From a virus (lineage: Duplodnaviria; Heunggongvirae; Uroviricota; Caudoviricetes), in IMG/VR virus record IMGVR_UViG_2877948078_000003: a stretch of 64,000 nucleotides of DNA, one strand, 5' to 3'. Within the stretch, counting starts at the first letter, position 1, and each line of letters begins with the position of its first letter. The notes under the pieces were generated by a model. The model was not told the DNA's origin and did not search any database. It saw nothing but the letters and a program-made list of their open reading frames with translations. Shown here piece by piece: positions 14,157 through 42,631 of the stretch. The position numbers and the translations under genes were made by a program.

Positions 14157-14166
14157 GGAAAAAGGT

Positions 14167-14970: not shown

Positions 14971-14972
14971 CG

Positions 14973-20207: not shown

Positions 20208-20243
20208 TGTTTATTTTATATTCATCCTTTATGCGGAGGCAAT

Positions 20244-22964: not shown

Positions 22965-23007
22965 ACGGTGAGCCGGGCTTACGGCCCGGCCCCTGCGGAG
23001 GGCAAAT

Positions 23008-24337: not shown

Positions 24338-24340
24338 CAG

Positions 24341-24571
24341 ATGACAACCATTTTTATCAAACCCGCGCCGGGATGCCTGATTCGTGATCCCGACACAATG
24401 CGCCCGCTGGCACAGGAGGGGGAAGAAAAACCCTTCACACCGTTCTGGTGTCGGCGTCTTGATGACGGCGATGTGATTGAGATTGAAAAAACAGCCGGTT
24501 CTGCGGATGCACCGGCAGAAAAACCCGCAGCGACTGTAAAACCCGTGGCATCTGACAAGGAGGCTTCCTGA
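24341..24571 (+). CDS. Mu gp38-like small protein
   Basis: 76-aa ORF directly upstream of the tail sheath gene. Confidence 0.5.
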   Translation: MTTIFIKPAPGCLIRDPDTMRPLAQEGEEKPFTPFWCRRLDDGDVIEIEKTAGSADAPAEKPAATVKPVASDKEAS

Positions 24572-26052: not shown

Positions 26053-26060
26053 GGTAAGGC

Positions 26061-26426
26061 ATGAGCGGAAAACAGTATCAGGGCACGGCCACTATCCGTG
26101 TGAACGGTCAGGAATACTCCACCCTTGAGGGGGCCACGTTCTCCCCGTCCGGCTTTGAGCGTGAAGTGGTGAAAGGCGCAAAAGTCTATGGCTATCGCGA
26201 GAAACCACGTGAAGCGACGCTGGACTGCAAATTTCCGGCAGGCGGAGACGGTTCACCGGCTGCTGATGAAATCAACACCTGGACTGCGGTCACCATCGAG
26301 TTTGTGGCGGACACCGGCGAAGTCCACATGATGACGAAGGCCTGGAGCAGTGAACCGGCCTCACTTGACGGTGGCGGGGAGATCTCCGCGAAGTTCGCCA
26401 GTGCCACCAGTACCCGTGTCCAGTAA
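26061..26426 (+). CDS. Tail tube protein (Mu M / gp40-like)
   Basis: 121 aa directly after sheath. Confidence 0.75.
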   Translation: MSGKQYQGTATIRVNGQEYSTLEGATFSPSGFEREVVKGAKVYGYREKPREATLDCKFPAGGDGSPAADEINTWTAVTIEFVADTGEVHMMTKAWSSEPASLDGGGEISAKFASATSTRVQ

Positions 26427-26440
26427 TCAGGAAAAATAAA

Positions 26441-26917
26441 ATGACCACACGTAAGAAAAAAACAGCGGTTTCTGACGAAGCCGTTATTGAGGCTATCCGT
26501 GATGCACTTGAGGACGGCGATCCACGCACCGCCGGTCTGGCTGAACAACTGGCGAAAGGCTATGTGGATCTGCTTGATGGTCTGCCATTCGGTGAGTCCC
26601 GTGAATACCGCGTCACCTTCCGTGAACTGACGGCGAAAGACAGCATTGATGCGGAAACCGATGCTGAACGTCTTATGGAAACCCGAAATGGCCCGGTTCT
26701 GGTGGCATCACCGGCCCTGCGCGGTATTGCGCTGCTGCGTCGCCAGATTGCCGCTGTCGGTGACATTCAGGGGCCGTTGTCACAACGCCAGATTGGACAG
26801 TTAAGCGAGCGCGATCTCTCCCGTCTGATGGCAGCGGTCAGCCTGCTGGATACAGCGCTTGCCGGAAAGCTGGCGGCTGATCGGGGGCGAGCAGGCGCAG
26901 TGTCGGGCGCAGATTGA
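26441..26917 (+). CDS. Tail assembly chaperone (Mu gp41-like)
   Basis: 158 aa between tube and tape measure. Confidence 0.55.
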   Translation: MTTRKKKTAVSDEAVIEAIRDALEDGDPRTAGLAEQLAKGYVDLLDGLPFGESREYRVTFRELTAKDSIDAETDAERLMETRNGPVLVASPALRGIALLRRQIAAVGDIQGPLSQRQIGQLSERDLSRLMAAVSLLDTALAGKLAADRGRAGAVSGAD

Positions 26918-27041
26918 AGAAGCGGCAATAGTGCTGGGGATGGTGACCAGAAGCGGCCCGGAATGGGCACTTAACCTCCCCTTATCGCAACTTTACCGGC
27001 ACTGCCAACAAACGGAAAAAATTCTCAGAACGAAGCAGTAA
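26859..27041 (+). CDS. Possible frameshift extension of the tail chaperone (overlapping ORF ending just before the tape-measure gene)
   Basis: 60-codon ORF in the +1 (equivalent to -2) frame overlapping the last 59 nt of the chaperone gene and stopping 3 nt before the tape-measure start; analogous to conserved tail-chaperone frameshifts. Confidence 0.35.
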   Translation: MPESWRLIGGEQAQCRAQIEEAAIVLGMVTRSGPEWALNLPLSQLYRHCQQTEKILRTKQ

Positions 27042-27044
27042 TCC

Positions 27045-29099
27045 ATGGCAAAAAACCTGAAAGCCTCCCTGATTGTCGATTTACTCGGCAATGTTTCCGC
27101 CAAATCCCGCCAGTGGTCACAGGAGCTGGGAGCGTTCTCCCGCGTCGGCAGGACGGGGCTGGGTGGTATTGGAAATGCAGCCCGCCGTGCCGGTCAGGAG
27201 ACAGAGCTTGTCGGCTCCCGTATGCAGCGTACGCTTGCCGGTGTCCGTGGCAGTATCCGCACGGTAACGTCGGATTTTGACCGTCTTCAGGGCAGTATTA
27301 CCGGCACACTGGGACGTCTCAGCAACCTTTACGGGATGCTGGCAGGAGGGGCTGCGGTCTACGGTTTTAATAAAGCCTTTATCCGCCCGGCCGCAGAGAT
27401 GGAGAACTATATTCTGCGTCTCAATGCCATTAATCATGGCGATACGGCAAAAACGGAAGCAGTGAAAGCCTGGGCGGTACAGAACGCAAAGGAAACCACC
27501 TGGGGGCTGGCGGGGGTTATGCAGGAATACGCCTCCAGTCGCGGGTTCGGTATGAGTGACAGGGAAGCCCGCCGCTTTATTACCATGCTTCAGGATCAGG
27601 GCGGCTATCACGGCTGGTCACTGTCAGATGCACAGGGTGCGTCCCTGCAACTCAAACAGATGTTTGCCCGCCAGAGTATCCAGGCCGCGGACGCCAGTAT
27701 CCTGACCGGATACGGGATAAACGTTTACCAGTTGCTGGCCGATAAACTGGGTGTAAACCAGAAGACCATCCGTGAGAAAGGCGAGAAAGGAAAACTGGGA
27801 CCGGACAGCATTCGGCTGTTATTTCAGGTGATGGCCGAACAGGCAAAAGGTGCCCAGAAAAACGCCATGAACTCATGGACAGGGATGACATCCATGATGG
27901 GCGACGTCTGGGACGGATTTGCCCGTGAAGTAATGGCAAAAGGGCCATTTGACAGCCTGAAAAAGAGCCTGAAAGGCTTCCTGGATTATGCCGATGCGGC
28001 ACAGAAAAGCGGCTTACAGGACAAGCTGGCCACACAAACAGCCTCAGCCCTGAATCAGGGGTTTGAGTATGCCAGAGACGCAGCGACGGGTTTTTACCGG
28101 GCCATTCAGAAAGTCAGGGAAACGCTTCAGGCATTGCGTGACGCTGGTTATGGCGATGCGCTGAATCGCATTGGTCAGGGCGCACAGACCGCCGCGAAAT
28201 ATCTCCTGTATATGTATCTCGCCACCCGTGCGCTGAAGGCTGTCCGCGCCATAGGTCTTGGGGCACTGCGACCGGGGGCGGCATTGTTGGGGTACGGGTT
28301 ATCCACGGCCGCTGTGCTGACCTCGCCTTTTCGTAAACCGCAGACCACCGTTCCGGGCACGCAGCCAGGACGTGGCCAGCGTTTTATGAACTTTCTTACC
28401 GGGGTAAATCCTGCTGCCGTTCAGCCCGTACTGGTCACCAACTGGCCTGCGGGTGGTCTGGCATCAGGTGGCGGGGATGTGGTGGTCAGCGGTGACGGCA
28501 AAACCGTGCGCGGTCGTAAAAAACGCGGCCCCGGACGTGGGCGGGGTGTTTCGACCGTTGTGACCGCAGGCGAACAACTGGCAGAGAGTGCCGGTAAACA
28601 GGGCTTCTTCGGTCGAATGATGAGCCGTGCCGGTGGTCTGCTTTCGGCTGCCGGAAACCGCATGGGACTGGGGCGTTTTGCCGGGCTTTTCCGTGGTGCT
28701 GGTCGGCTGGGTGGTGGTGCCCTGTGGGCCGGTGCCATGGCGGCTCCTGTACTGCTGGACAGCAGTGCCAGTGCCGTTGATAAAGCCGGTGCCGTGGGTT
28801 CCCTTGCCGGAAGTATCGCCGGTGGTGCGCTGGGGGCTGCCGCCGGTCCGGTCGGGGTTGCCATTGGTTCCACGGTGGGCAGTTATCTCGGTGATTATCT
28901 GGGGGGATGGCTGACCGAAGCCTGGCAGAAATTACGGGGCAGTGATGAAAATGGCGGACAGGCCACCGCGAAAACCGCCGCACGGGTGGAGCTTGTGGCC
29001 CCTGAAGGCTGGCGGGCACGCAGTATTGATGTGGATGATACCGTACAGCATGGCCTGGATGTGAACGTCTGGAACGGAGGGAACTATGGCCTCTACTGA
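27045..29099 (+). CDS. Tail tape measure protein (Mu gp42-like)
   Basis: 684 aa, Gly/Ala-rich with predicted TM-like stretches; position. Confidence 0.8.
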   Translation: MAKNLKASLIVDLLGNVSAKSRQWSQELGAFSRVGRTGLGGIGNAARRAGQETELVGSRMQRTLAGVRGSIRTVTSDFDRLQGSITGTLGRLSNLYGMLAGGAAVYGFNKAFIRPAAEMENYILRLNAINHGDTAKTEAVKAWAVQNAKETTWGLAGVMQEYASSRGFGMSDREARRFITMLQDQGGYHGWSLSDAQGASLQLKQMFARQSIQAADASILTGYGINVYQLLADKLGVNQKTIREKGEKGKLGPDSIRLLFQVMAEQAKGAQKNAMNSWTGMTSMMGDVWDGFAREVMAKGPFDSLKKSLKGFLDYADAAQKSGLQDKLATQTASALNQGFEYARDAATGFYRAIQKVRETLQALRDAGYGDALNRIGQGAQTAAKYLLYMYLATRALKAVRAIGLGALRPGAALLGYGLSTAAVLTSPFRKPQTTVPGTQPGRGQRFMNFLTGVNPAAVQPVLVTNWPAGGLASGGGDVVVSGDGKTVRGRKKRGPGRGRGVSTVVTAGEQLAESAGKQGFFGRMMSRAGGLLSAAGNRMGLGRFAGLFRGAGRLGGGALWAGAMAAPVLLDSSASAVDKAGAVGSLAGSIAGGALGAAAGPVGVAIGSTVGSYLGDYLGGWLTEAWQKLRGSDENGGQATAKTAARVELVAPEGWRARSIDVDDTVQHGLDVNVWNGGNYGLY

Positions 29100-30444
29100 C
29101 ACGCCGGGGCGTGGCTCCTTTCGTGGTGTACCGTTTCTGGTTTATCAGGAACAACGGGAACGGGGCGGACGTAACATTGTACGCCGTGAATATCCTCTGC
29201 GGGAAAGCGGCGGCGCGGATGATTTGGGGCCAAAACTCCCGGAGTTTACATTCACGGCTCTTGTGATCGGCGATGATCTTCAGACGCAGCGAAGCCGCCT
29301 GCGGGATGCGCTGCGGGCACCCGGTGCCGGTGAACTGATGCACCCGGATTACGGCACCTTAAACGTGCTGATAAACAGCTTTGAAAGCCGTTATAACGCC
29401 AGCGAACAGGGAACGGTTGAGTTCACAATCAACGTGATCCCCGCCTGTGATGATACCGCACCGGCGGTGGCTGAAGACACGGCTGCCGTTCTGGAGCAGA
29501 AAAGCGGTTCAGCAATGAATCAGTTGTTTAACACGCTTTCAGACGGCTGGACAGTGATTTCAGACGGCCTGCATGATGTGCAGGCCATGACCGACACCAT
29601 CAGCGATAAAATTGATGCGCTGGAGAATGCCGTTTCGGGAATGGGGATTGTGCAGGATATCAGTGCCTTTACGGCCAGTTTCACTGCCCTGAAAGGGAAT
29701 GCTGCCGCCCTGATTAATTCGCCCCGTCGCATGGCTGAATCTCTGGCCGGAATGTTTGCGGTGCTGACGGGACTGCCCGGCGATCCTTCCCTGTCACTGA
29801 CCGGGAAGGCCGCAACGCCGTCCGGCAGCCTGACCACAAACCGTGACAGCATGACAGAGCAGGCAATGCCGCAACTGTACCGCACACTTTCTTCCCTGCG
29901 TTATACCCTCAGCGGGCAGGATGATCCGCAGATCCTGATTGGTCTGACGCCTGCGGCACAGAAAAATATCTGTCTTCTGCGGACAGTCATGCAGAGCGCA
30001 ACCCTGGTGTCACAGGCGCAGACGGTAGGAAAACTGCTGGATCAGGTCGTCCGGCAGAGTGCGACGCACGTTCAGGATACTGACCGGGAGGGCGGACTGG
30101 CCTGGCTGGAAAGTTCTGCCGATGTGCAGCGGCTCAACCGGGATTTGAGTGATGCCCTGGAACAACAGGTGCTGGATTTGTCCGCACAGGGCCATACCGG
30201 AACCGCCCTTGCATTACGTGATGCCAGGCTTGCGCTGACAGAGGATTTAACAACGCGTAGCGTGCATCTTCCCGGCGCTTCTCAGGTCATGGTGCGAACC
30301 ACCGAACCGGCACTGGTCACGCTGTACCGTGCCACCGGCAACAGCCGTCGCTGGCAGTATTTTGTCCGCAGGAACAACATCCCTGATCCGGTTTTTGTTC
30401 CTGGTGGTCGCAGTGTGGAGGTGATCAGTGAGCAGCATGATTGA
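29086..30444 (+). CDS. Mu N-like DNA circularisation / tail protein (gp43)
   Basis: 452 aa; order after tape measure. Confidence 0.7.
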   Translation: MASTDTPGRGSFRGVPFLVYQEQRERGGRNIVRREYPLRESGGADDLGPKLPEFTFTALVIGDDLQTQRSRLRDALRAPGAGELMHPDYGTLNVLINSFESRYNASEQGTVEFTINVIPACDDTAPAVAEDTAAVLEQKSGSAMNQLFNTLSDGWTVISDGLHDVQAMTDTISDKIDALENAVSGMGIVQDISAFTASFTALKGNAAALINSPRRMAESLAGMFAVLTGLPGDPSLSLTGKAATPSGSLTTNRDSMTEQAMPQLYRTLSSLRYTLSGQDDPQILIGLTPAAQKNICLLRTVMQSATLVSQAQTVGKLLDQVVRQSATHVQDTDREGGLAWLESSADVQRLNRDLSDALEQQVLDLSAQGHTGTALALRDARLALTEDLTTRSVHLPGASQVMVRTTEPALVTLYRATGNSRRWQYFVRRNNIPDPVFVPGGRSVEVISEQHD

Positions 30445-31555
30445 GCTGTATATTGGTGGCAGTATTTTTTCCGGCTGGCTGACAGTAAGCGTCCGTCGTT
30501 CTCTGGAGCATCTGGCCGGGTCGTTTGAACTGGGGCTGATGCTGCCCGGTGAGCGCATCCCCTCAGCCCTGCGGACCGGTCAGTCCCTGACGCTCAGAAT
30601 TAACGGGCAGACGGTCATCAGTGGCTGGCTGGATCAGGTCAGTCAGCGGATCAGTGCAACCCGTCATCAGATCAGCATCAGCGGTCGGGATAAAACCGGC
30701 GACCTGGTGGACTGTGCCGCCATCCATCCCGGCAGTCAGTGGCGAAACCGGACGCTGGCACAGATTGCCGCAGATTTATGTGCGCCCTTCGGAATAGCCG
30801 TGCGCTGGCAGGTTAACGACGACACGGCTGCACGCCCCTTCAGCTCTTTTACCCTGGAAAACTCAGAAACCGTGGCGGATGCGCTGACCCGTGCGGCCCG
30901 GCATCGTGGGGTGCTGGTGACCAGTAATGCTGACGGCGATCTGGTGTTCACCCAGGCAGGAAATCAGCAGACGGACAGACTGGTGCTGGGGGAAAACCTG
31001 CTTGATGCCGATTACAACACGGACTGGCGCGGACGATACAGCGAATACCGTGTCCGGGGGCATGGACGCGGTGGTGGCAAACGGGGAGACAGCGAATCCG
31101 CCGCCCGGCTGGCGGCCCCTGTGGGTGTCATCAGTGATGATCAGATCGGTCGCTACCGGCCGAAAATCATCCTCGCCGATCAGCAGACAGACACCACCGG
31201 TGCACGGCAGCGCGCCCTGCGGGAGATGCGCCGTGCGGTTGCCCGTTCAGAGCGGTTTTCCGCCACCGTGCGTGGCTGGTTCCGGGATGATGGCCGGTTA
31301 TGGGATGTCAATCTGCTGACCGGTGTTTCGGCCCTGCGTTTCGGTATCGAACAGACTGAGCTGCTGGTCTGCCAGGTGGAGTTTTTACTGGATGAACAGA
31401 ACGGGGAAGTCACCCGGCTGGTCCTGGCACCGCGTGACGGCTTTATCGTTCCGGCAGAGCCGGACAGCAAAGGCCGTGGCGGTGGTTACGGTGACGATGT
31501 TGATGCCTTTATTCGCCAGCAGATGAAAAAACAGGGGATCAGCTTTGATGAATGA
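30428..31555 (+). CDS. Mu P-like tail/baseplate hub protein (gp44)
   Basis: 375 aa (Mu P ~379 aa); order. Confidence 0.75.
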   Translation: MSSMIELYIGGSIFSGWLTVSVRRSLEHLAGSFELGLMLPGERIPSALRTGQSLTLRINGQTVISGWLDQVSQRISATRHQISISGRDKTGDLVDCAAIHPGSQWRNRTLAQIAADLCAPFGIAVRWQVNDDTAARPFSSFTLENSETVADALTRAARHRGVLVTSNADGDLVFTQAGNQQTDRLVLGENLLDADYNTDWRGRYSEYRVRGHGRGGGKRGDSESAARLAAPVGVISDDQIGRYRPKIILADQQTDTTGARQRALREMRRAVARSERFSATVRGWFRDDGRLWDVNLLTGVSALRFGIEQTELLVCQVEFLLDEQNGEVTRLVLAPRDGFIVPAEPDSKGRGGGYGDDVDAFIRQQMKKQGISFDE

Positions 31556-32159
31556 TGAAGTGTTCAGCCGCCTGATTGCCCCGGTAACGCGCGGCATTCG
31601 CCTGTTGTTTGGCCGGGGCGTTCTGACCGGCACACATGACGAACTGAAAATGCAGAATGTGCAGCTCACCGGCATGGACGGCGAAACCTTTGATGATGTG
31701 GAGCGTCCCCAGCAGTACGGGCAGATCAGCGTTCCCCTGCCGGGTGCGGAAACCTTTTTTGCCTGTCTGGGCGGGCAGCGTGATCAGACCGTGGTGCTTG
31801 TGGTGGAAGACCGCCGCAGTCGCCCGACCGGACTCACTGCCGGAGATACCGGCGTGTATCACCATGAGGGACACCGTATACGTCTTACCCGCGACGGGAG
31901 GATCATCGTGACCTGTAAGACGCTGGAGATTTACGCCGATGAAGGTGTTCAGGTGGATACACCGGAAGCCACTTTTACGGGCAATGTCACGGTGGATAAA
32001 AACCTGCATATCAAAGGTAATCTGACCATTGACGGCACAGGAAAATCACAGGGTACGTTCACGATGTCCGAGGCTGTTATTGCCGGAATCACCTATTCCG
32101 GCCATGTACATCATGATAACGGTGAAGGCAGTAAGACAGGAGCGCCGGAGAATGGCTGA
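31545..32159 (+). CDS. Baseplate assembly protein V / spike (Mu gp45-like)
   Basis: 204 aa; order and size. Confidence 0.7.
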   Translation: MMNDEVFSRLIAPVTRGIRLLFGRGVLTGTHDELKMQNVQLTGMDGETFDDVERPQQYGQISVPLPGAETFFACLGGQRDQTVVLVVEDRRSRPTGLTAGDTGVYHHEGHRIRLTRDGRIIVTCKTLEIYADEGVQVDTPEATFTGNVTVDKNLHIKGNLTIDGTGKSQGTFTMSEAVIAGITYSGHVHHDNGEGSKTGAPENG

Positions 32160-32589
32160 TATTGCAATTGTGTGGGATAAGGGATGCGGTTCGCTGCAAC
32201 TGAACGGTGCAGACCTGCTGACAGATGACAGCCTGATGACAGCGGTTCTGATTTCACTGTTCACTGACCGCCGGGCACTGACGTCGGATGAAATCCCTGA
32301 TGGCACTCGTGACCGCCGGGGATGGTGGGGAGACAGCTTTCGCCAGCGTCCCATTGGCTCCCGTCTGTGGCTTCTCAGCCGGGAAAAAACGCTGGCCTCT
32401 GTGATAAGCCGTGCCCGTGCCTACGCGGATGAGGCGCTGGGCTGGCTCAGTCAGGATGGCGTGGCGTCATCCGTGGTCTGTCATGCAGAACGTGTGGGGC
32501 ACGCGCGGCTGGCGCTTTCGGTGCGCATAACCCTGCCTGATGGTTCGGTAAGACCCATGATTTTTTATGCTGATCTTAAGGGGGAGTAA
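32152..32589 (+). CDS. Baseplate protein (Mu gp46 / W-like)
   Basis: 145 aa from ATG at 32152 (longer upstream ORF disregarded); order and size match Mu gp46. Confidence 0.7.
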   Translation: MADIAIVWDKGCGSLQLNGADLLTDDSLMTAVLISLFTDRRALTSDEIPDGTRDRRGWWGDSFRQRPIGSRLWLLSREKTLASVISRARAYADEALGWLSQDGVASSVVCHAERVGHARLALSVRITLPDGSVRPMIFYADLKGE

Positions 32590-33671
32590 TGCCTTATCAG
32601 CCTTTACCGCTGGCACAGTTAATCACGCAGACACAGCAGGATATCAGCCAGCGTCTTCCCGGTTCGCAGCCGGGCGTGAATGAAACCACCCTGAATGCCA
32701 TTGCGTATGCTCAGGCAGGATTGTCTGCACAGGAGCATGAACATCTGGCCTGGATTGCACGTCAGATCATCCCGACAGAAGCCGATGAAGCCGAGTTGCT
32801 GAAGCACTGCGCTTTCTGGGGTGTCATGCGTAAACCCGCCTCACGGGGTGACGGGCCGGTTCAGCTGATGCTGACCACGGATGCGGGGATCACGGAAGGT
32901 GTGCTTCTCCAGCGCAGTGACGGCGTGGTTTACCGCATCACCTCCTCACTGACCGGTAAAGCCGGTACGCTGAATGTCAGTGTGGAGGCCGAAAGTGCCG
33001 GTCGTGCGGGAAATGCCCCGGCAGGGACGAAACTGACGTTTGTCACTCCGCAGGCGGGGATCAACCAGACGGCCACGGTGACCGGAACAGGGATCACCGG
33101 TGGTGCGGATGTGGAAACGGTGCCGGAGCTGCTTTCCCGTCTGGTTTTCCGGGTGCAGAATCCGCCGTCCGGCGGTACACAGTACGATTTTGAACGCTGG
33201 GCGCGTGAAGTGCCGGGGGTGACGCGGGCATGGTGCCGCCCGGAATGGCCGCAGGCGGGCTGCGTGGGGGTGACGTTCGTTCAGGACAACAACCCGGACA
33301 TTTTTCCCGGTGAAGGTGATGTGAAACGTGTGGCGGATTATATCCGCAGTCATGATGATCCGGCGACCGGTCAGCCTGTCGGTCAGCCGCTGGGGCCGAC
33401 GGTGACCGTGTTTAAACTGACCAATAAGCCAGTGCCCTTCAGTATCAGGATCATCCCGAAAACACCGGAGAATCAGGCGGCAGTAAAACAGGCACTGACC
33501 GACCTGTTATACAACGAATCCCGCCCCGGCGGTCTGGTTCTGGCGTCGTCTTTCTGGCGTGCCGTGGCGGGGGTGAAAAATCTGGAGGATTTTGAAGTGC
33601 GCAGCCCGCTGACGTCGGTTCAGGCGGGAGACAGCGAGCTGCTGACAGTGGGGGAAATCACATGGCTGTAA
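32589..33671 (+). CDS. Baseplate J-like protein (Mu gp47)
   Basis: 360 aa; order and size. Confidence 0.8.
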   Translation: MPYQPLPLAQLITQTQQDISQRLPGSQPGVNETTLNAIAYAQAGLSAQEHEHLAWIARQIIPTEADEAELLKHCAFWGVMRKPASRGDGPVQLMLTTDAGITEGVLLQRSDGVVYRITSSLTGKAGTLNVSVEAESAGRAGNAPAGTKLTFVTPQAGINQTATVTGTGITGGADVETVPELLSRLVFRVQNPPSGGTQYDFERWAREVPGVTRAWCRPEWPQAGCVGVTFVQDNNPDIFPGEGDVKRVADYIRSHDDPATGQPVGQPLGPTVTVFKLTNKPVPFSIRIIPKTPENQAAVKQALTDLLYNESRPGGLVLASSFWRAVAGVKNLEDFEVRSPLTSVQAGDSELLTVGEITWL

Positions 33672-34222
33672 CCCTCACTCCGCATCAGCGCGCCCTGTTG
33701 CAGTTGCTGCCTGACGGACTGGCCTGGGACAAGCGGCCGTCATCCGTACTGGCTGCGTTATGCCTTGGCCTCAGCCATTCCACCGAACGTGTTGCATGGA
33801 CGGGAAAACAACTGCTGGCAGAACGTTTCCCTGACAGTTCCCGTCTGCTTCTGGAAGACTGGGAGCGTTATCTCGGCCTTCCCGAGTGTGATATGGCCGG
33901 AGCCACCATCACAGAACGACAGCGTTATGCCGGGAATAAATACCGGATGAAACCTTCGCTGAACCGTGAATTTTATATCCGGTTTGCGGCAGAGTTTGGT
34001 TATGAAATAGATATTCAGCCATCACCGTATTCACAGTGGGTCAGTATTGTCACGATAAACAGTGAAACCGGCTACCGGAATATGAATGTGCTGGATGATA
34101 TTCTCACCCCGCTGCGTATTTATGAGGGCGGTGCGCTGGAATGTATTCTGAACCGTTATAAGCCTGCATGGCAGACGTTTATTTACGTGTATGCAAACAG
34201 TCACGAGGAGGAGAATATTTAA
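33662..34222 (+). CDS. Tail protein (Mu gp48-like)
   Basis: 186 aa; directly upstream of the tail fibre gene. Confidence 0.65.
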
Positions 34223-35082
34223 TGTTTCATGTTGATAATAATTCCGGCGTGGCGAATATGCCTGCGCTGGCACCGGCGCAGAGTAATACCACCGCCTGGT
34301 TTACCGAAGGTGACGGACAAAAAGGTATCAGCTGGATTGGTCAGGACTGGCTGAATATTCTCCAGGCCGAACTGCTGAATATTCTGGCTGAAGCCAGTAT
34401 TCAGCCGGATAAGGCGCAGTTAAACCAGCTTACGCTGTCTATTAAAGCCATTATCGCTGCGAATGCTTTTTCCCGGAAAAATAACCTGAAAGAAATTGCT
34501 GATGCCGGTGCGGATGCTCAGCGTCTGGCCCGTGGTTATCTTGGTCTGGGGACGCTTGCCACAAAAAACAGTCTTGGTCCCGGTGACGTTAATGCCCTGG
34601 CGAAGGTTCAGAATCTCGCCGACCTGGAGAATAAGGGAACCGCCCGTAATAATCTGGATGTTTACAGCAAGAGCGAAGGTGATAACCGTTACCTGCGCAG
34701 GGAGCAGCACGGCGCAGACATTCCGAATAAAGGGGCTTTTATCGATAACCTCGGTTTACGGGATACGGTAAACAGGGCTGCGAATGCCCTGCCATCAAAC
34801 GGTACGGCTGTTGCAGCAAGCAGGCTGGCAAATACCCGCAGAATCAATGGTGTCGCCTTTGACGGGACGCAGGATATAAACATCACATCCGGCATAACTC
34901 AGAGGGATGCTGATGCCCGATATGTTCAGAACGTAATGCTGGGTGCAAGTGCGCGGACAGAGACAACAGCACCAGCTGGATGTGTTGTAACATTTGTGGA
35001 TGGTGGCAGTAAAATGGAGTTTATAATGTATAAGCCTGTTCAAATATATATCGGGGGAGCATGGAGAACAATCTCTGGCTGA
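34222..35082 (+). CDS. S: Tail fibre protein S (constant part plus variable tip in the current orientation)
   Basis: 287 aa from ATG 34222; the gix crossover site lies inside the gene at 34739-34764; C-terminal [17 protein letters not shown] tip. Confidence 0.7.
34739..34764. promoter_or_regulatory. gix-L recombination site (Gin/Hin-type 12-2-12 crossover site)
   Basis: TTATCGATAACC-TC-GGTTTACGGGAT resembles the Mu gix / Hin hix consensus; inverted copy at 36094-36119. Confidence 0.65.
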
Positions 35083-35168
35083 TTTTTATTTATTCTGCGA
35101 AGCATCAGTAATACCCGCAGACAAAAAAATATATCATCGGCGGGGTTTATATAAAATACAGGTGAAAA

Positions 35169-35690
35169 ATGGAACTAATCAACGTTAAGCGATATAACCC
35201 GGAACACAAACCCTATGGTGAGAATGTTCAGTATTTCCAGAGTGAGGACGGAAGGGATTTTTATGAATCTATCCCGCTTTTCACAAAGAAATACAAACTC
35301 TGTATTTCGCCTGTAACGGGTATTATCTGCTCTGTTGCTGAAGATGTCTCTGCTTTATATCCGGCAGGTTTTACTGTTGTTGAAGTGGACGAACTGCCGG
35401 AAGGTGTGAATATTGACGGTAACTGGCAGTTTTCTGATGGCCTGATATCAAAGGTGCCGGTAAACTGGAAGACGGTTGCTGAAAATCGCCGCTCATCGCT
35501 GCTCCAGGAGGCCAACGGAACCGTGGATGACTGGAAAACAGAATTAAAACTGGACATGATTAGCGATGAAAATAAATTAAAGCTGACGCGCTGGATGGCG
35601 TATATCCGACAGCTTAAAGAAATGCACTTTAATGATATTGCCAGTGAGGGGCATTACCAGGCGATTCCCTGGCCGGAAAAACCGGAATAA
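35169..35690 (+). CDS. U: Tail fibre assembly protein (U / Tfa-like)
   Basis: 173 aa immediately after S; Tfa-like N-terminus. Confidence 0.7.
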   Translation: MELINVKRYNPEHKPYGENVQYFQSEDGRDFYESIPLFTKKYKLCISPVTGIICSVAEDVSALYPAGFTVVEVDELPEGVNIDGNWQFSDGLISKVPVNWKTVAENRRSSLLQEANGTVDDWKTELKLDMISDENKLKLTRWMAYIRQLKEMHFNDIASEGHYQAIPWPEKPE

Positions 35691-35724
35691 TTCAGAGGGT
35701 GCATTCAGCACCCTTTTCTGTGGT

Positions 35725-36105
35725 TTACACTGAACTCACCGTTCTCCAGGCATTATTAATATAAATCTGAACCGGGCGATAATAGACCCCACCGATATTA
35801 TCCGCAGACCGGGAGCCGGTATCCTGTACATGAATACCGGAAAGCATACAACCTGCTGGTGTTTTATAATCCCAGGTGACTTCATTACCCGCAGGAGAGT
35901 GGCGGCTCTGAGCACCAAGTTGCACATTACGAACATATCTGCCGTCTGCTGTAGCCTGGGTCATACCGGATGTAATAGTGATGTCTTTTGTGCCATCGAA
36001 CGCAACACCATTAATTTTACGTGCCGCAGACAGCTTGTTTGCCGCTACGGCTGTACCATTCGATGGCAGGGCATTTGCAGCCCTGTTTACCGTTTCCCGT
36101 AAACC
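35725..36105 (-). CDS. Alternative tail-fibre C-terminal segment S' (expressed only after inversion; no own start codon)
   Basis: Minus-strand frame open from gix-R down to the stop at 35725; after inversion it fuses in frame to the S constant part; ends YRPVQIYINNAWRTVSSV, paralogous to the S tip. Confidence 0.55.
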   Translation of the reverse strand, partial: GLRETVNRAANALPSNGTAVAANKLSAARKINGVAFDGTKDITITSGMTQATADGRYVRNVQLGAQSRHSPAGNEVTWDYKTPAGCMLSGIHVQDTGSRSADNIGGVYYRPVQIYINNAWRTVSSV

Positions 36106-36119
36106 GAGGTTTCAGGGAT
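36094..36119. promoter_or_regulatory. gix-R recombination site
   Basis: TTCCCGTAAACC-GA-GGTTTCAGGGAT, inverted relative to gix-L. Confidence 0.65.
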
Positions 36120-36173
36120 GCCGTATATCTGCTTTAAAAGGCCTTTCCACCTCTTTTTAAGGAAGGTAAATAC

Positions 36174-36734
36174 ATGCTGATTGGCTATATACGCGTATCA
36201 ACAAATGACCAGAACACAGGTTTACAAAGAAATGCGCTGGAATGTGCAGGATGTGAGCAGATTTTTGAAGATAAAATGAGCGGAAACACAACGCAGCGAC
36301 CGGGACTGAAGCGGGCACTGAAGAAACTAAAACCCGGTGACACACTGATGGTCTGGAAACTGGACAGGCTGGGGCGCAGTATGCGCCACCTTGTTGCGCT
36401 GACAGATGAATTACAGCAACAGGGGATAAATTTTCGTAGTCTTACTGACAACATTGATACGTCAACCCCCATGGGGCGCTTCTTTTTTCACATAATGGGT
36501 GCGCTGGCAGAAATGGAGCGTGAATTAATTGTCGAACGGACACGGGCTGGTCTTGCAGCTGCCCGTGAAAGGGGACGAACCGGCGGCAGACCCCGCCGTC
36601 TCACGCAGGAACAATACGAGCAGGTTGGGCGTTTACTGGCCGGGGGTGTCAGTCGAAGACAGGTGGCACTTATTTTTGATATCGGCCTTTCAACCCTTTA
36701 TCGTTATTATCCTGCGAGCGTTTCGGAAAAATAA
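36174..36734 (+). CDS. gin: Serine DNA invertase (Gin/Hin/Pin family)
   Basis: 186 aa; N-terminal MLIGYIRVSTNDQ catalytic-serine motif; C-terminal HTH; adjacent to gix-R. Confidence 0.9.
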   Translation: MLIGYIRVSTNDQNTGLQRNALECAGCEQIFEDKMSGNTTQRPGLKRALKKLKPGDTLMVWKLDRLGRSMRHLVALTDELQQQGINFRSLTDNIDTSTPMGRFFFHIMGALAEMERELIVERTRAGLAAARERGRTGGRPRRLTQEQYEQVGRLLAGGVSRRQVALIFDIGLSTLYRYYPASVSEK

Positions 36735-36833
36735 GACGCTCCCTTTGTTGGGCCTTTACTGAATTAACGCAAAATGGCGTTTATCGGTCTGTGGATATGA
36801 TAATTCTGTTTATTCAGGAACAGGCTGATTATT

Positions 36834-38876
36834 ATGACGTCCAAATGGGTTCAACTATCATCAATGCCCGGAAACTTTACCGTTAAAGTTTCCGGTGGTA
36901 CAGCGGCATTTCTTGAGGCTCCCTTTCCTCCGGCTGAAGCGAAAGGAGGAATGACATTTGCTGACTGTCTCATCAGTTTTAATACACGGGATTGCCTGTG
37001 GGTAAGACCAGTATCCGGTGATCCGAGTGTGGAAATTACCGGAGCGGGTATTGGTGCGGTCATTCCGTTAAGTGCTGATGTTGCCGGTACTGCTGAACCG
37101 TCAGACTGGGATAATGCTGAAACACATACCCGTCCGTCAGGAAATGAAACGGCTTCCAGCTCCCCTTCCTGGTATTACGTGGTGGTTCTTGCTGGTCAGT
37201 CAAACGGTATGGCTTACGGTGAAGGTCTGCCACTGCCGGAGACATATGACCGCCCCGAACCGCGTATTATGCAGTTAGCCCGTCGCAGTACAGTCACGCC
37301 GGGAGGTAAAGCCTGTCAGTATAACGACATCATTCTGGCCGACCACTGTCTGCATGATGTGCAGGATATGAGTGGAAAAAATCACCCGAAAGCGGATGTG
37401 GCTAAAGGGCAATATGGCACCGTGAGTCAGGGGCTTCACATTGCCAAAAAACTGCTGCCGTTTATTCCGGCAGATGCGGGGATTCTGCTGGTTCCCTGCT
37501 GTCGTGGCGGTTCTGCATTCACGGCGGGTGCTGACGGCACGTACAGTGACAGCACGGGTGCTTCAGAGGACTCAGCCCGCTGGGGTGTGGATAAGCCGCT
37601 GTATAAGGACTTAATCAGCCGGACAAAAGCGGCACTGGCGAAGAACCCGAAAAACCGCCTGCTTGCTGTGGTGTGGATGCAGGGCGAGTTTGATATTGAT
37701 GCGAAGCCGACGGAGCATTCTGCGCTGTTTCTGGCGATGGTGGAAAAATTCCGCACAGACCTGGCTGAAAAAGCGGAGCAGTGTATTGGTGGCCGGACTG
37801 AAACTGTGCCGTGGATTTGTGGCGATACCACGTATTTCTGGAAAAAGAAAAATGAACCGGCATATCAGGCAATCTATGGCGGCTACAAAAACAAAACAGA
37901 TAAAAACATTCATTTCGTCCCATTAATGACAGATGAAAATGGCGCGAATGTACCCACCAACAATCCGACAGAAGACCCGGATATTGAATCCATTGGTTAT
38001 TACGGCTCAACGTGGCGTAACAGTGCTGCCACCTGGACATCTGCGGACCGGGCCAGCCATTTCAGTGCCTGGGCGCGCCGGGGAATTATTTCCGACCGTC
38101 TGGCCACGGCTGTTCTGACTCACGCAGGGCGAACCACAGTAAAAGCCGATGTTCCATCTTCTGAAACTGATGCGCCAACGCCGTCACCTTCAGAAGCTGA
38201 AACAGTAACCACAACAACACTGCTGTCTTACCGTGCCAGTGAGTCTGAAGGGAAGCTGACCGAACAGGGCTGGAGTGCAGGTGGAGGTAAAGCGGAAATT
38301 GTTGCCGATGAAGGTGCAACAGGTGGTACCGCGATGAAGCTGAGCAAGGAGACAGGAGTGGGGTCATGGTATCTGGAGCATGATGCCGGCACTGGCGCTG
38401 AACTGCTGAAAAATGGCGGTTTAATCAGCTGCCGCTTTAAGGCATCCGGTGAACTGGTAGCAAATCAGTATGTCATTGCTCTTTACTGGCCGGTTTCCTC
38501 TCTGCCGCAGGGTGTCACCCTGACAGGGGATGCAGGGAATAATCTGCTGGCAGCGTTTTACATCCAGACAGATGCAAAAGACCTGAATGTGATGTACCAC
38601 AATGCGAAGGTGGCGACAAACAACCTGAAACTGGGAAGCTTTGGCGCATTTGATAACGAATGGCATACGCTGGCCTTCCGCTTTGCCGGGAATAACAGCC
38701 TTCAGGTGACGCCGGTTATTGATGGTCAGGATGGCACACCGTTCACGCTGACGCAGTCACCGGTCAGTGCCTTTGCGACGGATAAACTGCATGTGACAGA
38801 CATTACCAAAAATGCGACTTACCCCGTGCTGATTGACAGCATTGTGGTGGAAGTGAAAAAAGCGGTAACAGAATAA
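36834..38876 (+). CDS. nanS-p: NanS-p-type sialate O-acetylesterase (SGNH/DUF303 esterase with C-terminal lectin-like domain), cargo inside the Mu-like prophage
   Basis: 680 aa; central block VVVLAGQSNGMAYGEG ... VVWMQGEFD typical of the NanS family; ~75-85% identical over most of its length to the split host-prophage copy but with a different N-terminal ~130 aa. Confidence 0.8.
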   Translation: MTSKWVQLSSMPGNFTVKVSGGTAAFLEAPFPPAEAKGGMTFADCLISFNTRDCLWVRPVSGDPSVEITGAGIGAVIPLSADVAGTAEPSDWDNAETHTRPSGNETASSSPSWYYVVVLAGQSNGMAYGEGLPLPETYDRPEPRIMQLARRSTVTPGGKACQYNDIILADHCLHDVQDMSGKNHPKADVAKGQYGTVSQGLHIAKKLLPFIPADAGILLVPCCRGGSAFTAGADGTYSDSTGASEDSARWGVDKPLYKDLISRTKAALAKNPKNRLLAVVWMQGEFDIDAKPTEHSALFLAMVEKFRTDLAEKAEQCIGGRTETVPWICGDTTYFWKKKNEPAYQAIYGGYKNKTDKNIHFVPLMTDENGANVPTNNPTEDPDIESIGYYGSTWRNSAATWTSADRASHFSAWARRGIISDRLATAVLTHAGRTTVKADVPSSETDAPTPSPSEAETVTTTTLLSYRASESEGKLTEQGWSAGGGKAEIVADEGATGGTAMKLSKETGVGSWYLEHDAGTGAELLKNGGLISCRFKASGELVANQYVIALYWPVSSLPQGVTLTGDAGNNLLAAFYIQTDAKDLNVMYHNAKVATNNLKLGSFGAFDNEWHTLAFRFAGNNSLQVTPVIDGQDGTPFTLTQSPVSAFATDKLHVTDITKNATYPVLIDSIVVEVKKAVTE

Positions 38877-39025
38877 AAAAAATCCCGCCGGTCATGATAT
38901 GGCTGGCGGGAGCTACCTAACCCATAAAGGAAAATAAAAATACTCCCGAAGGAGTAGTTATCAGTCACTTCGTCATGTTTTTACCCGATAACGAATTATG
39001 TAGTCAATATCAAAGGTAAGGTTAT

Positions 39026-39208
39026 ATGACATTCGTTCATACAATGCTGCTTTATTTCTGCGCTGTGGTCAGTGCGTTATATCTGGTGAGCGGCGGTTAT
39101 AAGGTCATCAGAAATTATATTCGCCGTAAAATTGATGATGCGGCAGCTGAAAAACTCAGTAAAACAGCACAGGCACCGTCATCCCCAAACGACCCGCCCC
39201 CGCTCTGA
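39026..39208 (+). CDS. Hypothetical small membrane protein
   Basis: 60 aa with one TM helix; RBS AAGG upstream; downstream of the esterase. Confidence 0.4.
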   Translation: MTFVHTMLLYFCAVVSALYLVSGGYKVIRNYIRRKIDDAAAEKLSKTAQAPSSPNDPPPL

Positions 39209-39243
39209 TAACGGGGCAATATACCTGCAAAAGGAGAATATTC

Positions 39244-39489
39244 ATGCCAGAGATTAAAGGCACGGTTACTGAAGAGCTTGTCAAACAGGCACTTTATTCT
39301 GAAGAAGTGAACCGCGTGCTGAAGGCGCAGGTTCGCAAGGATTTTGAGGCACAAATCGACGCATATGTTGATGAAGTGCTGGCCCGAATGGTTGGCCGTT
39401 CTCCGGCTGAAAACAGCACGGAAAATGAGCCTCAACCCGTAGAGCAACCAGAGCCGGTTCAGCCCGGAACTGACGGTACTATGATGTAA
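39244..39489 (+). CDS. Hypothetical small acidic protein
   Basis: 81 aa; RBS AAGGAG 6 nt upstream of ATG. Confidence 0.45.
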   Translation: MPEIKGTVTEELVKQALYSEEVNRVLKAQVRKDFEAQIDAYVDEVLARMVGRSPAENSTENEPQPVEQPEPVQPGTDGTMM

Positions 39490-39796
39490 CAATACCGACC
39501 GGCAGGTTTCCCTGCCGGGTGAATTTGTTAATGCACGTTTTGTGTATTTTCCCTCCGGGGAGAACAGGCAGGACATATCAGCATCCTGAAACAGGAAGCA
39601 TTTTTTGGTTTGTATGTCTTGCCATTTTGAGATCGAGAACGGCGATAGATGAGCTGTAAGGGAGTCTTACAGGCAGGGCAAACAGGCTCTTTATCCATGA
39701 TAAAGATCTCCTTTTTATGCATCTCTGCTTTACAGGAGACCGGGGAATATCATAGGATACGACACGAGCTCGAAGTAAAGCATTGATGCAAGTTTT

Positions 39797-39835
39797 TACA
39801 GATTGACCCAGCATAGTTCCAGCTATGCTGGGTTT
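39797..39835 (+). terminator. Rho-independent terminator
   Basis: Hairpin CCCAGCATAG-TTCCAG-CTATGCTGGG followed by TTTCCCTTTTAT. Confidence 0.5.
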
Positions 39836-39989
39836 CCCTTTTATGTAGTATCCTGTTGATTTGAAACATACTACATATACGCGCGATCCTACCTTCACTG
39901 TATAAAAAGTCAATAAAATGATCATTTTATGATCGTTTTCACCACCTAACTCTTCGTTTTCTTTAAGTAAATAATCACCGCCCTGAATC

Positions 39990-40100
39990 ATTGTTGATGA
40001 CTTTTCAATCTATTTGTTGTATCAATTAAACAAATCGAATCGATCGTTTTTGTCGATCGATTGCATGAGAAAGGCATCAACAACAAAGCAGGAGGTTATG
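39990..40100 (+). promoter_or_regulatory. Putative com-mom promoter region with clustered GATC (Dam) sites
   Basis: AT-rich region with GATC-containing repeats (AATCGATCG, GTCGATCGATT) just upstream of com, as in Mu where Dam methylation and C control Pmom. Confidence 0.4.
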
Positions 40101-40105
40101 CGGCC

Positions 40106-40306
40106 ATGTATCGAAACATACGGTGCCGACACTGCAATAAGCTACTGGCACGGGCCAGTTTCAGTTATCTGGAAGTAAAATGTCCGCGCTGTAAAACCCT
40201 CAATCAAATCACATCTCCGAGCGCCACAGAGCACCCCACATACACAAGGAAATCCTGTCGTGGGGAACAGAAAGCAAGTCACATCCCGAATCATCAGCAC
40301 GCCTGA
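40106..40306 (+). CDS. com: Com-like zinc-finger translational activator of mom
   Basis: [31 protein letters not shown] (CxxC ... CxxC) resembles Mu Com; RBS AGGAGG upstream; overlaps the mom start. Confidence 0.7.
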
Positions 40307-40997
40307 ACTTATTCGCTATAACGACAATATCGTTGGTTATGGCTCCCGTGAGTTGCGGGTTGAGACAATAAGTTGCTGGCTGGCCAGACTGGTCATCGTC
40401 AATAAACATTACAGCCACCGTTTCGTAAATAACTCCTACCTTCATCTGGGCATATTTTCAGAACGGGAACTTGTTGGCGTAATGCAATGGGGTTACGCCC
40501 TTAACCCAAACAGTGGTGCACACGTCGTAACGGGTACGCAGAACCGAGAATATATGGAGCTTAACCGGCTATGGCTGCATGACTGTATGCCGAGAAACTC
40601 CGAATCAAGGGCAATCAGTTACGCGCTCAAGCTAATCAGACAGCTTTATCCGCAGGTACAGTGGGTTCAGTCGTTTGCAGATGAGCGTTGTGGCTGTCTT
40701 GGTGTCGTGTATCAGGCAAGCAATTTTGATTATGTAGGCAGCCATGAATCAACATTCTATGAACTTGATGGCGAGTGGTATCACGAGATTTGCAGGAATG
40801 CCATTAAACGAGGCGGACAACGAGGTGAACATCTGAGGGCTAATATCGACAGAGCCAGTGTTCATAAGTTCCGACAGTTTCGTTACATCCGGTTTCTGAA
40901 CAAGAGGGCCAGAAAACGCCTCAACACAAAGCTATTCAAAGTCCAGCCTTACCCAAAACCACAAACTGTTAAAACCGGTTTGAAAGAGATTGGGTGA
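40260..40997 (+). CDS. mom: Mom-like DNA modification protein (anti-restriction adenine modification)
   Basis: 245 aa starting at GTG inside the com 3' end as in Mu; last gene before the right end. Confidence 0.7.
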
Positions 40998-41039
40998 GTG
41001 CTTAAAAACTCATTCTAAAACGCAAAGGAAAAGCGCCGA

Positions 41040-41124
41040 TTTAGTATCAAATAAGTTGCGTATCGGCGTTTTTCAGCGGTATCAAATGAAATGCAAATCG
41101 GTATCAAAAAAATCGCCGCGCTAT
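41040..41124 (+). repeat. Mu-like right end (attR) with inverted candidate transposase-binding motifs
   Basis: AGTATCAAA at 41043-41051, GGTATCAAA at 41078-41086 and 41100-41108: reverse complements of the left-end motifs; terminus reads ...CGCGCTAT rather than the canonical CA. Confidence 0.55.
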
Positions 41125-41129
41125 ACTCC
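41125..41129. repeat. Right copy of the 5-bp target-site duplication ACTCC
   Basis: Identical to 2240-2244. Confidence 0.6.
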
Positions 41130-42631
41130 GCACCCTGTCCGGCTGCATCATGCTCCAGAAACCAGATGTGGTTTTCCGGTTTGTTCAGTTGCAGAGCCTT
41201 ACCTCCCGTAGCCCCCGCATCACTGACCACCGCTTCAGCAATGTTTTTGTTAACACTGTCTCCGCCCGCCGGTTTGTGATAATAGCGCCAGCCCTGTGAT
41301 GCCAGGTCTTCGCCGGATGCCAGCAGACTCATCAGGGTTCGGTTACTGACCGGGGCTTCCGCCTCTCTCTCCGGACCTTCACCGGAAGGTACGGTGGGCT
41401 TCACCATATCAGGCTGTTTTCCGGTAATGAATTCAGCGGTTCTCCCGGCGTGCACCAGAATCGCCGTTGCCAGACGGTCGGAAATAATCCCCCGGCGTGC
41501 CCAGGTGCTGAAATGGCTCGCCCTGTCCTGTGACGTCCAGGTGGCTGAGCTGTCACGCCATTTCGAACCGTAATACCCGATACCCGGAATGTCCGGGTCT
41601 TCTTCCGGTTTGTTCGTCGGCACATTCACCCCGTTCTCATCCGTCATGAACGGTACGAAATGGATATTCTTTTCCGTTTTGTTTTTATAGCTGCCGTACA
41701 CCGTCTGGTACGTGGATTCGTTCTTCTGCTTCCAGAAATACGTCGTGTCCCCGCATATCCAGGGAACACTGCCAGCAGAGCCACTGACGCACTGGCCTGC
41801 CATATCCGCCAGGTCTGCACGGAATTTATCAACCAGCGCACCAAACTGTGCTGCGTGATTTCCGGGCGTGCCGTCAAAATCAAATTCCCCCTGCATCCAC
41901 ACCACGGCAAACAGCACATTTTTCGGGTTCTTCTTCAGTGCTGCTTTTGTTCGACCGATAAGGTCCTTATACAGCGGCTTGTCCACACCCCAGCGCGCTG
42001 AATTCTCCGAGGCACCGCCAGCGTCACTGTATGTGCCATCAGCTCCGGTGGTGAACGCTGAACCACCACGACAGCACGGAACCAGCAGAATACCCGCATT
42101 CGCCGGTATAAACGGCAGCTGTTTTTTGGCGATATGCAGCCCCTGCCCCACGGTACCGTACTGCCCCTTTGACAGGTCCGCTTTCGGATGGTTAAGGCGG
42201 CTCATGTCCTGCACATCATGCAGACAATGGTCCGCCGGAATGATGTCGTTATATTTGCATGCTGCACCGCCCGGTGTCACCGTACTGCGGCGCGCCAGCT
42301 GCTTAATGCGCGGGTCCGGACGGTCATATGTCTCCGGCAGCGGAAGACCTTCACCATACGACATGCCATTTGACTGCCCTGCCAGAACCACAACAAAGTA
42401 ATACTCCGGGTCGCTGGTGGCACTGACAGCCACCACCTTACCCTCATTACCGGTCACCGCCACTGGTGTGGTGACATCACCTTCCGCCGCAATGGCCTGC
42501 ATCAGGGTATAAGGCGTGATGGCCACCGGACTGCCAAATGGCTGCCAGCCCTCCTTCAGTTTTTGTGTCAGTCGTTCAGCAAGGTCTGACGGCGATGCCG
42601 CCCTGACCACATCGTAGTGTTTAAATGCCAT
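41125..42631 (-). pseudogene. nanS-p: 5' (N-terminal) part of the nanS-p-type esterase gene interrupted by the Mu-like prophage
   Basis: Minus-strand translation from ATG 42631 through ...FLEHDAAGQGAE is NanS-like; beyond 41125 the frame reads through Mu-like end sequence to a fortuitous stop at 41015. Confidence 0.8.

Follow-up and report, generated by a model that had tools for sequence, protein, structure and literature searches.

Surveys of phage-borne nanS-p genes count them in lambdoid and Shiga toxin (Stx) prophages, where the gene is defined by an architecture of DUF1737, SASA domain and C-terminal domain. Enzymatic activity has been published only for the NanS-p alleles of EDL933 and O104:H4, on Neu5,9Ac2 and on O-acetylated mucin glycans (PMC8065619). 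The NanS-p of phage phi24B, gp84, is reported to be a capsid-decoration protein whose DUF1737 binds the central hexons as a hexamer, and DUF1737 mostly occurs as a small stand-alone protein (preprint 10.64898/2026.04.10.717836). Here we describe a NanS-p-type sialate O-acetylesterase gene at positions 36834–38876 of a 64,000-nucleotide stretch of viral DNA (IMG/VR record IMGVR_UViG_2877948078_000003; "the window" refers to this whole stretch). The gene is located between gin and com of a transposable Mu-like prophage of the type of Sp18 in Escherichia coli O157:H7 Sakai. In phage Mu this interval is practically empty, as a first-pass annotation of the window had stated, with a spacing of 94 bp compared to 3.37 kb and four genes in the window. 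Most probably, Mu-like phages of the Sp18 family have this gene as their resident NanS-p-type esterase, and it is not a one-off cargo gene.

The esterase gene and its carrier

The gene is an uninterrupted open reading frame (ORF) of 680 codons on the plus strand. Pfam places the SASA family at aa 116–313 (E 1.1e-11) and DUF6645 at aa 525–643 (E 1.7e-73) of the 680-aa protein. The catalytic core aligns with E. coli NanS (YjhS; PDB 3PT5) over aa 104–428 against residues 11–331 (E 7e-118), and the C-terminal part aligns with the full chain of PDB 6YP6, the C-terminal domain of phi24B NanS-p (E ~1e-115). The NanS/NanS-p block motifs (GQSN ... RASH/RSSH), as compiled in PMC10462455, are present, with GQSN at aa 121–124 (Ser123) and RASH at aa 406–409 (His409). 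The open frame and these matches bear out the earlier description of an intact NanS-type esterase of 680 aa. In databases the gene is labeled automatically as sialate O-acetylesterase or DUF6645 protein, and NCBIfam has no model for the esterase or for the DUF1378 and DUF826 proteins encoded downstream. Many NCBI records start the protein at Met11 (669 aa; position 36864 compared to 36834). The 680-aa start is favored, as residues 3–10 are kept in the AF39-type and Salmonella homologues discussed below and an AGGA sequence is found 13 nt upstream of 36834.

From the homology to characterized NanS and NanS-p proteins we infer that the protein is an esterase. If expressed and released, it would strip O-acetyl groups from the 9-O-acetylated sialic acids of mucus and mucin glycans, and the C-terminal lectin-like domain would aid substrate binding. 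No N-terminal hydrophobic signal-like segment is found in the protein, and release would therefore depend on lysis or virion display.

The Mu-like element that carries the gene encodes MuA (3466–5556) and MuB (5628–6560), identified by the Pfam families Mu-transpos_C, HTH_Tnp_Mu_1 and Phage-MuB_C. It starts with TGTAACCAGG at 2245, and its last letters, at 41125, are CGCTATA. The termini TGTAACC...GCGCTATA are seen with differing flanks in the window, in E. coli UTME-3, where the element is inserted in a GntP permease gene, and in LC727895, where it is inside an Stx1a phage. The right end, first placed at 41040–41124, is thus essentially correct (~41125), as alignments to the other insertions break off there; the right part (39500–41125) is 98.7% identical to Sakai Sp18. 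The right terminus reads ...TATA and not ...CA. The canonical target duplication of Mu is 5 bp. At the three independent insertions the duplications are all 4 bp, CTCC (window), AATT (UTME-3) and AGAG (LC727895), and the depositors of LC727895 likewise annotated a 4-bp duplication; a 5-bp duplication, compatible with just one of the three insertions, was rejected. The LC727895 insertion (locus L003) has its duplication at 6089–6092 and 45430–45433, and loci L001 and L002 correspond to UTME-3.

The element interrupts a second nanS-p gene, which belongs to a lambdoid prophage. A minus-strand ORF at 41015–42631 contains DUF1737 and SASA according to Pfam, and excising 2245–41125 together with one CTCC copy joins 41130–42631 to 1782–2244 in a single 654-aa frame with DUF1737, SASA and the C-terminal domain. 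Because the ends are precise, the target is duplicated and the frame is restored on excision, we conclude that the lambdoid nanS-p was interrupted by transposition. That one esterase copy sits inside another disrupted one is a coincidence of ordinary transposition. The interrupted prophage has no stx genes adjoining its nanS-p (42632–47884, minus strand); upstream of the split gene are an AraC-family regulator (44496–45221), a TolA-C-terminal-like protein (45917–46345) and a DNA methylase (46826–47884).

The two copies in the window share 65% protein identity (394/606; aa 102–679 of the Mu-borne copy against aa 60–652 of the split copy), and at the DNA level similarity is 78% for the catalytic region and 67% for the C-terminal one. 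Nucleotide homology to any lambdoid nanS-p begins at 37172, which is codon 113. The N-termini are unrelated: DUF1737, found in the split copy, is absent from the 680-aa protein in Pfam, an hhalign comparison with DUF1737 gives a probability of 0.2%, and aa 1–115 match no Pfam family even at E 10. The first-pass annotation had the esterase within the Mu-like element and as a paralogue of the gene that this element disrupted, and both statements are upheld. It was also right about the shared core and C-terminal domain and the unrelated N-terminus, except that the latter comprises ~112 aa, not ~130.

Conservation at the gin-com position

In Sakai Sp18 the same gene order is found, from ECs_4992 (invertase) through ECs_4993, ECs_4994, ECs_4995 and ECs_4996 to ECs_4997 (com) and ECs_4998 (mom), with the 679-aa ECs_4993 annotated just as "hypothetical protein". 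When the junction between gin and the esterase gene (36500–37250) was searched at a threshold of at least 95% identity, it was present in 204–205 of 5426 complete E. coli genomes, at 246 scattered chromosomal places and mostly in E. coli that produce Shiga toxin (STEC); the com-mom end is found in 233 genomes. E. coli AF39 harbors a more distant Mu-like prophage, with an 81% identical invertase and the same trio of esterase, DUF1378 and DUF826 genes. The arrangement tfa-(gin)-esterase-DUF1378-DUF826-mom is found in all 34 IMG/VR loci with a gene for the N-terminal domain. Since insertion sites differ and synonymous divergence is saturated, these other occurrences are not one recent clone.

Outside E. 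coli, a Mu-like prophage of Salmonella enterica encodes, after the invertase and two small ORFs, a homologous N-terminus (28% identity) fused to SASA. This fragment was the useful one of five matches to the N-terminus in an exhaustive HMMER search; another, the 1445-aa repeat protein P0005, is of low complexity and was disregarded. No match to the N-terminal domain turned up among the GTDB species representatives scanned, the only returns of word-indexed protein searches with it were pieces of the esterase gene itself, and tblastn of the Salmonella N-terminus against sequenced phages returned Mu-like inserts only.

In the catalytic domain, the ratio of nonsynonymous to synonymous substitution (dN/dS) between two E. 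coli lineages is 0.11–0.13, with synonymous sites near saturation. Between clades, the N-terminal domain has saturated synonymous sites and yet keeps 60% of its residues. These values indicate that the esterase is under purifying selection. They also argue against the ORF being a decaying, functionless fusion of a Mu-like gene fragment and a nanS-p fragment, as one might suspect from the frameshifted ECs_4996 homologue next to it and from the 3 of 32 IMG/VR copies (those not cut by a contig end) that are truncated. The other 29 copies are full length, all 680 codons of the window gene are open with the catalytic motifs intact, and the N-terminal domain is kept as far as Salmonella; we consider such a remnant extremely improbable.

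The first-pass annotation had regarded an esterase gene as unusual for a transposable phage and proposed a look at related Mu-like prophages. The esterase occupies the same position throughout, and is a fixed syntenic feature (Sakai, ~205 of 5426 genomes, 34 of 34 IMG/VR loci, Salmonella). In the searchable literature, Sp18-like phages are described as widespread phages that transpose and frequently sit within other prophages, Stx phages among them; their esterase gene is unmentioned there, with listing in the primary NanS-p papers still possible. Mitomycin does not induce the Sp18-type prophage (PMC2669165).

The alternative that this prophage picked up the gene recently and independently from a co-resident lambdoid prophage, possibly the one it interrupts, would fit the presence of lambdoid nanS-p copies in the host, one of them holding the insertion, and the homology of the core from codon 113 to the stop codon. 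However, identity to the interrupted copy is just 65% in protein and 67–78% in DNA, hundreds of genomes and divergent Mu-like lineages, that of Salmonella among them, have the same gene at the same position, and the element is bounded by its transposition ends and target duplication. Moreover, the DUF1378-DUF826 segment has no DNA-level match in the lambdoid phages of the phage collection. To judge from these comparisons, the module in the Mu-like phage is not a recent copy of the lambdoid one, and a recent pick-up is highly unlikely. The independent acquisition considered in the first-pass annotation is in this respect contradicted for a recent event in this strain, by the 65% identity to the neighboring copy and the missing lambdoid match.

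Exchange with lambdoid alleles

The two small ORFs noted earlier at 39026–39489 encode DUF1378 and DUF826 proteins according to Pfam. In the Stx2 phage 1720a-02, stx2A is followed by nanS-p, a 60-aa ORF (DUF1378), an 81-aa "C81-like" ORF (DUF826), S and R, and DUF826 and DUF1378 ORFs between nanS-p and S have been noted before (Pascal et al., PMC10462455). On this basis, from the catalytic domain onward, the block in the Mu-like phage is the counterpart of a module of the lambdoid late region. We propose that an ancestor of the Sp18-type Mu-like phages took up the nanS-p-DUF1378-DUF826 block, joined to a different N-terminal module, in the interval from gin to com, and that this preceded the split of the E. 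coli lineages and probably also that of the Salmonella lineage. Homologous recombination in polylysogenic hosts would then have overwritten the part from the core to DUF1378 repeatedly, while the N-terminal module stayed with the backbone.

Traces of such exchange are found at two scales. Compared to the Mu-like loci L014 and L015, the window is at least 96% identical up to ~37180, 21–79% identical from there to ~39250, and 99–100% identical through DUF826 to mom, which delimits an exchangeable block. Within the gene, the tract at 38210–38770 is 98.8% identical to nanS-p of 1720a-02, with flanks at 70–84%. Differences between the window and Sakai Sp18 are concentrated at 38050–38850, and the Sakai allele diverges most in the 1720a-02-like tract.

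The domains of the gene accordingly differ in their affinities. Identity to the window allele in the N-terminus, catalytic domain and C-terminal domain is 99, 96, and 86% for Sakai Sp18, 97, 67, and 41% for the Mu-like L014, and 60, 69–74, and 69–77% for the AF39 type; in lambdoid alleles (hybrid P0074 left out) the N-terminus is unrelated and the other two are 77–80 and 58–93% identical. In neighbor-joining trees, the catalytic domains of Mu-borne esterases fall in three separate clades, and the C-terminal domains of Mu-borne and lambdoid alleles are interleaved. The idea that recombination between paralogues shaped the locus, the other option given in the first-pass annotation, is thus supported by the conversion tract, the replacement of core and DUF1378, and the interleaved domain trees. 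These patterns indicate that the homologous part has been repeatedly overwritten by paralogue recombination, and that the N-terminal module passes on together with the backbone of the Mu-like phage.

A number of points weigh against this account of a resident gene reshaped by lambdoid alleles. No close match to the esterase cores of L014 and L020 is found among sequenced phages, so that none of these can be named as donor of the very divergent L014-type cores, and transfer could have gone either way, from lambdoid to Mu-like phages or the reverse. The sole direct lambdoid::Mu hybrid, L042 (GCA_012426925.1, contig AASMET010000054.1), comes from one draft assembly and may be a real recombinant or an assembly chimera. 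It has lambdoid upstream sequence and DUF1737, switches at the equivalent of ~37600 to an Sp18-type esterase core, and continues with DUF1378, DUF826, com and mom, followed by chromosomal fli genes. As the hybrid gene is absent from the 5426 complete genomes, we treated it as unconfirmed and kept it out of the primary evidence. The Salmonella homologue is broken off by the contig end, and its full architecture is not visible. Regarding expression, no enzymatic or expression data for the window allele or ECs_4993 turned up in the searchable literature. A convincing promoter was not found upstream of the esterase gene, where promoter-like sites are no commoner than in shuffled sequence. No plus-strand terminator was found between gin and the esterase ORF or directly after the ORF. 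Two GC-rich hairpins are located past the esterase stop (38878–38910 and 38941–38956), each with an A-run before it on the plus strand. They would serve the minus strand as intrinsic terminators, not the esterase transcript.

We also considered that the gin-com segment arrived in the Mu-like genome as an independent mobile element, or as an integrated cassette bounded by ends of its own. The G + C content of ~52% at 37–39 kb, compared to 57–60% in the tail genes, and the opposite strand of 39528–39991 could be read in this way, but low G + C is common to the entire right-hand region including gin and mom, and the breakpoints sit at the edges of lambdoid homology rather than at fixed element ends. 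A repeat search for terminal inverted or flanking direct repeats of the segment returned only short ones at chance level, no transposase or integrase was found in it with Pfam and PHROG-type profiles, and an Rfam scan of 35.5–41.3 kb identified no element. Own ends of the segment, which the first-pass annotation had named as the finding that would speak against its reading, were thus looked for and none were found. With chance-level repeats only, we reject a separate element as very improbable, and retain the uptake of a lambdoid-type block followed by homologous exchange.

The coordinates of the gene, its domains and the surrounding features are listed in Table 1. Several of the neighboring features vary among relatives. 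The ECs_4996 homologue, of 154 aa, is encoded on the opposite strand between DUF826 and com; it is a pseudogene in the window, and the UTME-3 copy is also annotated as frameshifted. In the otherwise near-identical Sp18-type prophages L007 (past the window equivalent of ~40300) and H139 (NZ_CP027459.1), mom is swapped for unrelated sequence annotated as a DNA cytosine methyltransferase, giving the right end what seems to be a different module for DNA modification. The tail-fiber assembly gene (35169–35690) is on the plus strand in the window and a few other loci and on the minus strand in most relatives (L006–L039), consistent with Gin-mediated inversion of a host-range segment. Finally, the P2/P88-like myophages ON470599.1, ON470623.1, and PV468777.1 (~33–40 kb) carry a SASA-type gene annotated "DUF1737 domain-containing" that shares ~76% DNA identity with a portion of the Mu-borne esterase gene of the AF39 type, which places nanS-p-like genes in a third type of prophage.

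Table 1. Features of the esterase gene, the Mu-like element and the interrupted lambdoid gene, in window coordinates.
Feature	Coordinates	Strand	Basis or remark
Sp18-type Mu-like transposable prophage, 38,881 bp, TGTAACCAGG... to ...CGCCGCGCTATA	2245..41125	+	MuA, MuB, Gin, Com, Mom; shared ends
Target duplication CTCC, left copy	2241..2244		Read from sequence
Target duplication CTCC, right copy	41126..41129		Removal of element and one copy restores the nanS-p frame
Split lambdoid nanS-p, 5' part (DUF1737 and most of SASA)	41130..42631	-	Pfam, frame restoration
Split lambdoid nanS-p, 3' part (most of C-terminal domain), then P21-type holin, lysozyme, Rz	1782..2244	-	
NanS-p-type sialate O-acetylesterase gene of the Mu-like element, 680 aa	36834..38876	+	Homologue of Sakai ECs_4993
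N-terminal domain, aa 1-80, predicted small all-beta barrel, Mu-like-phage-specific, in the place of DUF1737	36834..37073	+	
Linker, aa 81-112, disordered, P/S/T/E/D-rich, end ...ASSSPS	37074..37169	+	pLDDT ~40; no homology to lambdoid alleles
SGNH/SASA catalytic domain, ~aa 113-430, GQSN (Ser123), RASH (His409)	37170..38123	+	3PT5, Pfam SASA
C-terminal lectin-like jelly-roll domain (DUF6645), ~aa 460-675	38211..38858	+	6YP6, Pfam DUF6645
Exchangeable block: esterase core, intergenic region, DUF1378	37180..39250	+	Compared to loci L014, L015
Gene-conversion tract in common with nanS-p of lambdoid Stx2 phage 1720a-02	38210..38770	+	7 mismatches in ~560 nt
Gin-type serine DNA invertase	36174..36734	+	Pfam Resolvase E 4.2e-51, HTH_7 E 1.7e-14
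DUF1378 small membrane-type protein, 60 aa	39026..39208	+	Pfam E 5.2e-38; order as in Stx2 phage 1720a-02
DUF826 protein, 81 aa	39244..39489	+	Pfam E 3.1e-15; phrog_311
Sakai ECs_4996 homologue (phrog_26524), frameshifted by 1-nt deletion	39528..39991	-	
com	40106..40306	+	Com zinc-ribbon CxxC motifs in translation; Com in annotation of relatives
mom	40260..40997	+	Pfam Mom E 4.7e-77

The N-terminal module and described systems

The part of the protein that sets it apart from lambdoid NanS-p is predicted to be a separate domain. AlphaFold2 with a shallow alignment models aa 1–78 as a compact six-stranded all-beta domain with a predicted local distance difference test score (pLDDT) of 72–87, followed by a disordered linker up to aa 112; a single-sequence model of the whole protein had a mean pLDDT of 33 and was not used. 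The predicted all-beta fold differs from the helix and three strands of DUF1737 (10.64898/2026.04.10.717836). A Foldseek search of viral models (BFVD) returned many uncharacterized phage proteins of ~90 aa with template modeling (TM) scores of 0.5–0.64 (E ~0.02). The profile hidden Markov model of phrog_4772 (79 aa), over its full length, matched the window sequence weakly (E 0.0045) and the Salmonella sequence with an E of 8.4e-6. No paralogue of the domain is detectable elsewhere in the window or the element. The linker ends in ...ASSSPSWYY just ahead of the catalytic domain, with SSP at aa 109–111 (37158–37166). This SSP resembles the proposed autoprocessing motif of phi24B gp84, and is not kept in the AF39-type or Salmonella linkers.

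It is possible, though we hold it only tentatively, that the beta-barrel is a virion-attachment module that tethers the esterase to the Mu-like head or tail, which would make the gene a structural or decoration gene and not a moron. DUF1737 is reported as a capsid binder (preprint 10.64898/2026.04.10.717836), and exactly that domain is replaced in the window gene; the replacement stays with the Mu-like backbone in three lineages while the core is exchanged. Like DUF1737, the domain resembles small stand-alone phage proteins (phrog_4772 and the ~90-aa BFVD proteins). It is predicted to be compact and followed by a long flexible linker, whose terminal SSP is similar to the proposed gp84 processing site, and the gene comes directly after the tail-fiber and gin block on the late-gene strand. 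On the other side, the phrog_4772 match is weak for the window sequence, the N-terminus has no detectable paralogue in the element, and the study behind the argument is one preprint about a podovirus. The label "cargo" or "moron" of the first-pass annotation is itself uncertain, as the phi24B homologue is reported as a capsid-decoration protein (10.64898/2026.04.10.717836). If the virion anchor is real, the module swap would represent one enzyme adapted to two unrelated virion architectures.

By extension, and equally speculatively, NanS-p-type esterases might be virion-displayed mucus-modifying enzymes on interchangeable anchor modules. DUF1737 would then dock to lambdoid or phi24B-type capsids and the barrel of aa 1–80 to the Mu-like myovirus particle, with the core shuffled freely among unrelated co-resident prophages and each phage keeping its own anchor. 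With precisely the reported capsid-anchor domain replaced, the gene provides a natural test of a virion component against a gene that benefits the lysogen.

A transposable Mu-like family, carried by ~4% of the complete E. coli genomes, most of them STEC, adds another intact nanS-p-type allele to these strains. Screens keyed to DUF1737 or to the region between Q and S would miss the Mu-borne allele. In addition, the ~2 kb of homology that an element able to transpose freely shares with several lambdoid prophages could serve as a substrate for rearrangements of the chromosome. Database entries for the gene go back to the Sakai genome, and the gene extends a known system without being of a new kind. 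Taken together, an alternative N-terminal architecture, a transposable-phage context and sequence traffic with lambdoid alleles appear not to have been described before.

Compared to lambdoid NanS-p, the window protein has the same SGNH/SASA domain, NanS-type block motifs and lectin-like C-terminal domain, and its gene is likewise trailed by DUF1378 and DUF826, but the DUF1737 capsid-binding domain is replaced by an unrelated beta-barrel and linker. The lambdoid gene has Q/stx upstream of it and the lysis genes downstream, whereas the window gene lies between gin and com of a transposable myovirus-type prophage. The catalytic domain also aligns along its whole length with chromosomal NanS (YjhS, 3PT5), a single-domain protein of ~330 aa in the nan/yjh sialic-acid regulon that lacks the N-terminal module and the lectin-like domain of the window protein. 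At the right end of Mu, Gin, Com, and Mom have the same order and orientation as in the window, beside an invertible tail-fiber segment; the window differs by the four genes in the 3.37 kb between gin and com (94 bp in Mu), and by a target duplication of apparently 4 bp compared to 5 bp in Mu. The closest counterpart, ECs_4993 of Sp18, is found at the same position and is 99% identical in the N-terminal domain and 96% in the catalytic domain; the lower identity of its linker (82%) and C-terminal domain (86%) is explained by the lambdoid conversion tract carried by the window allele.

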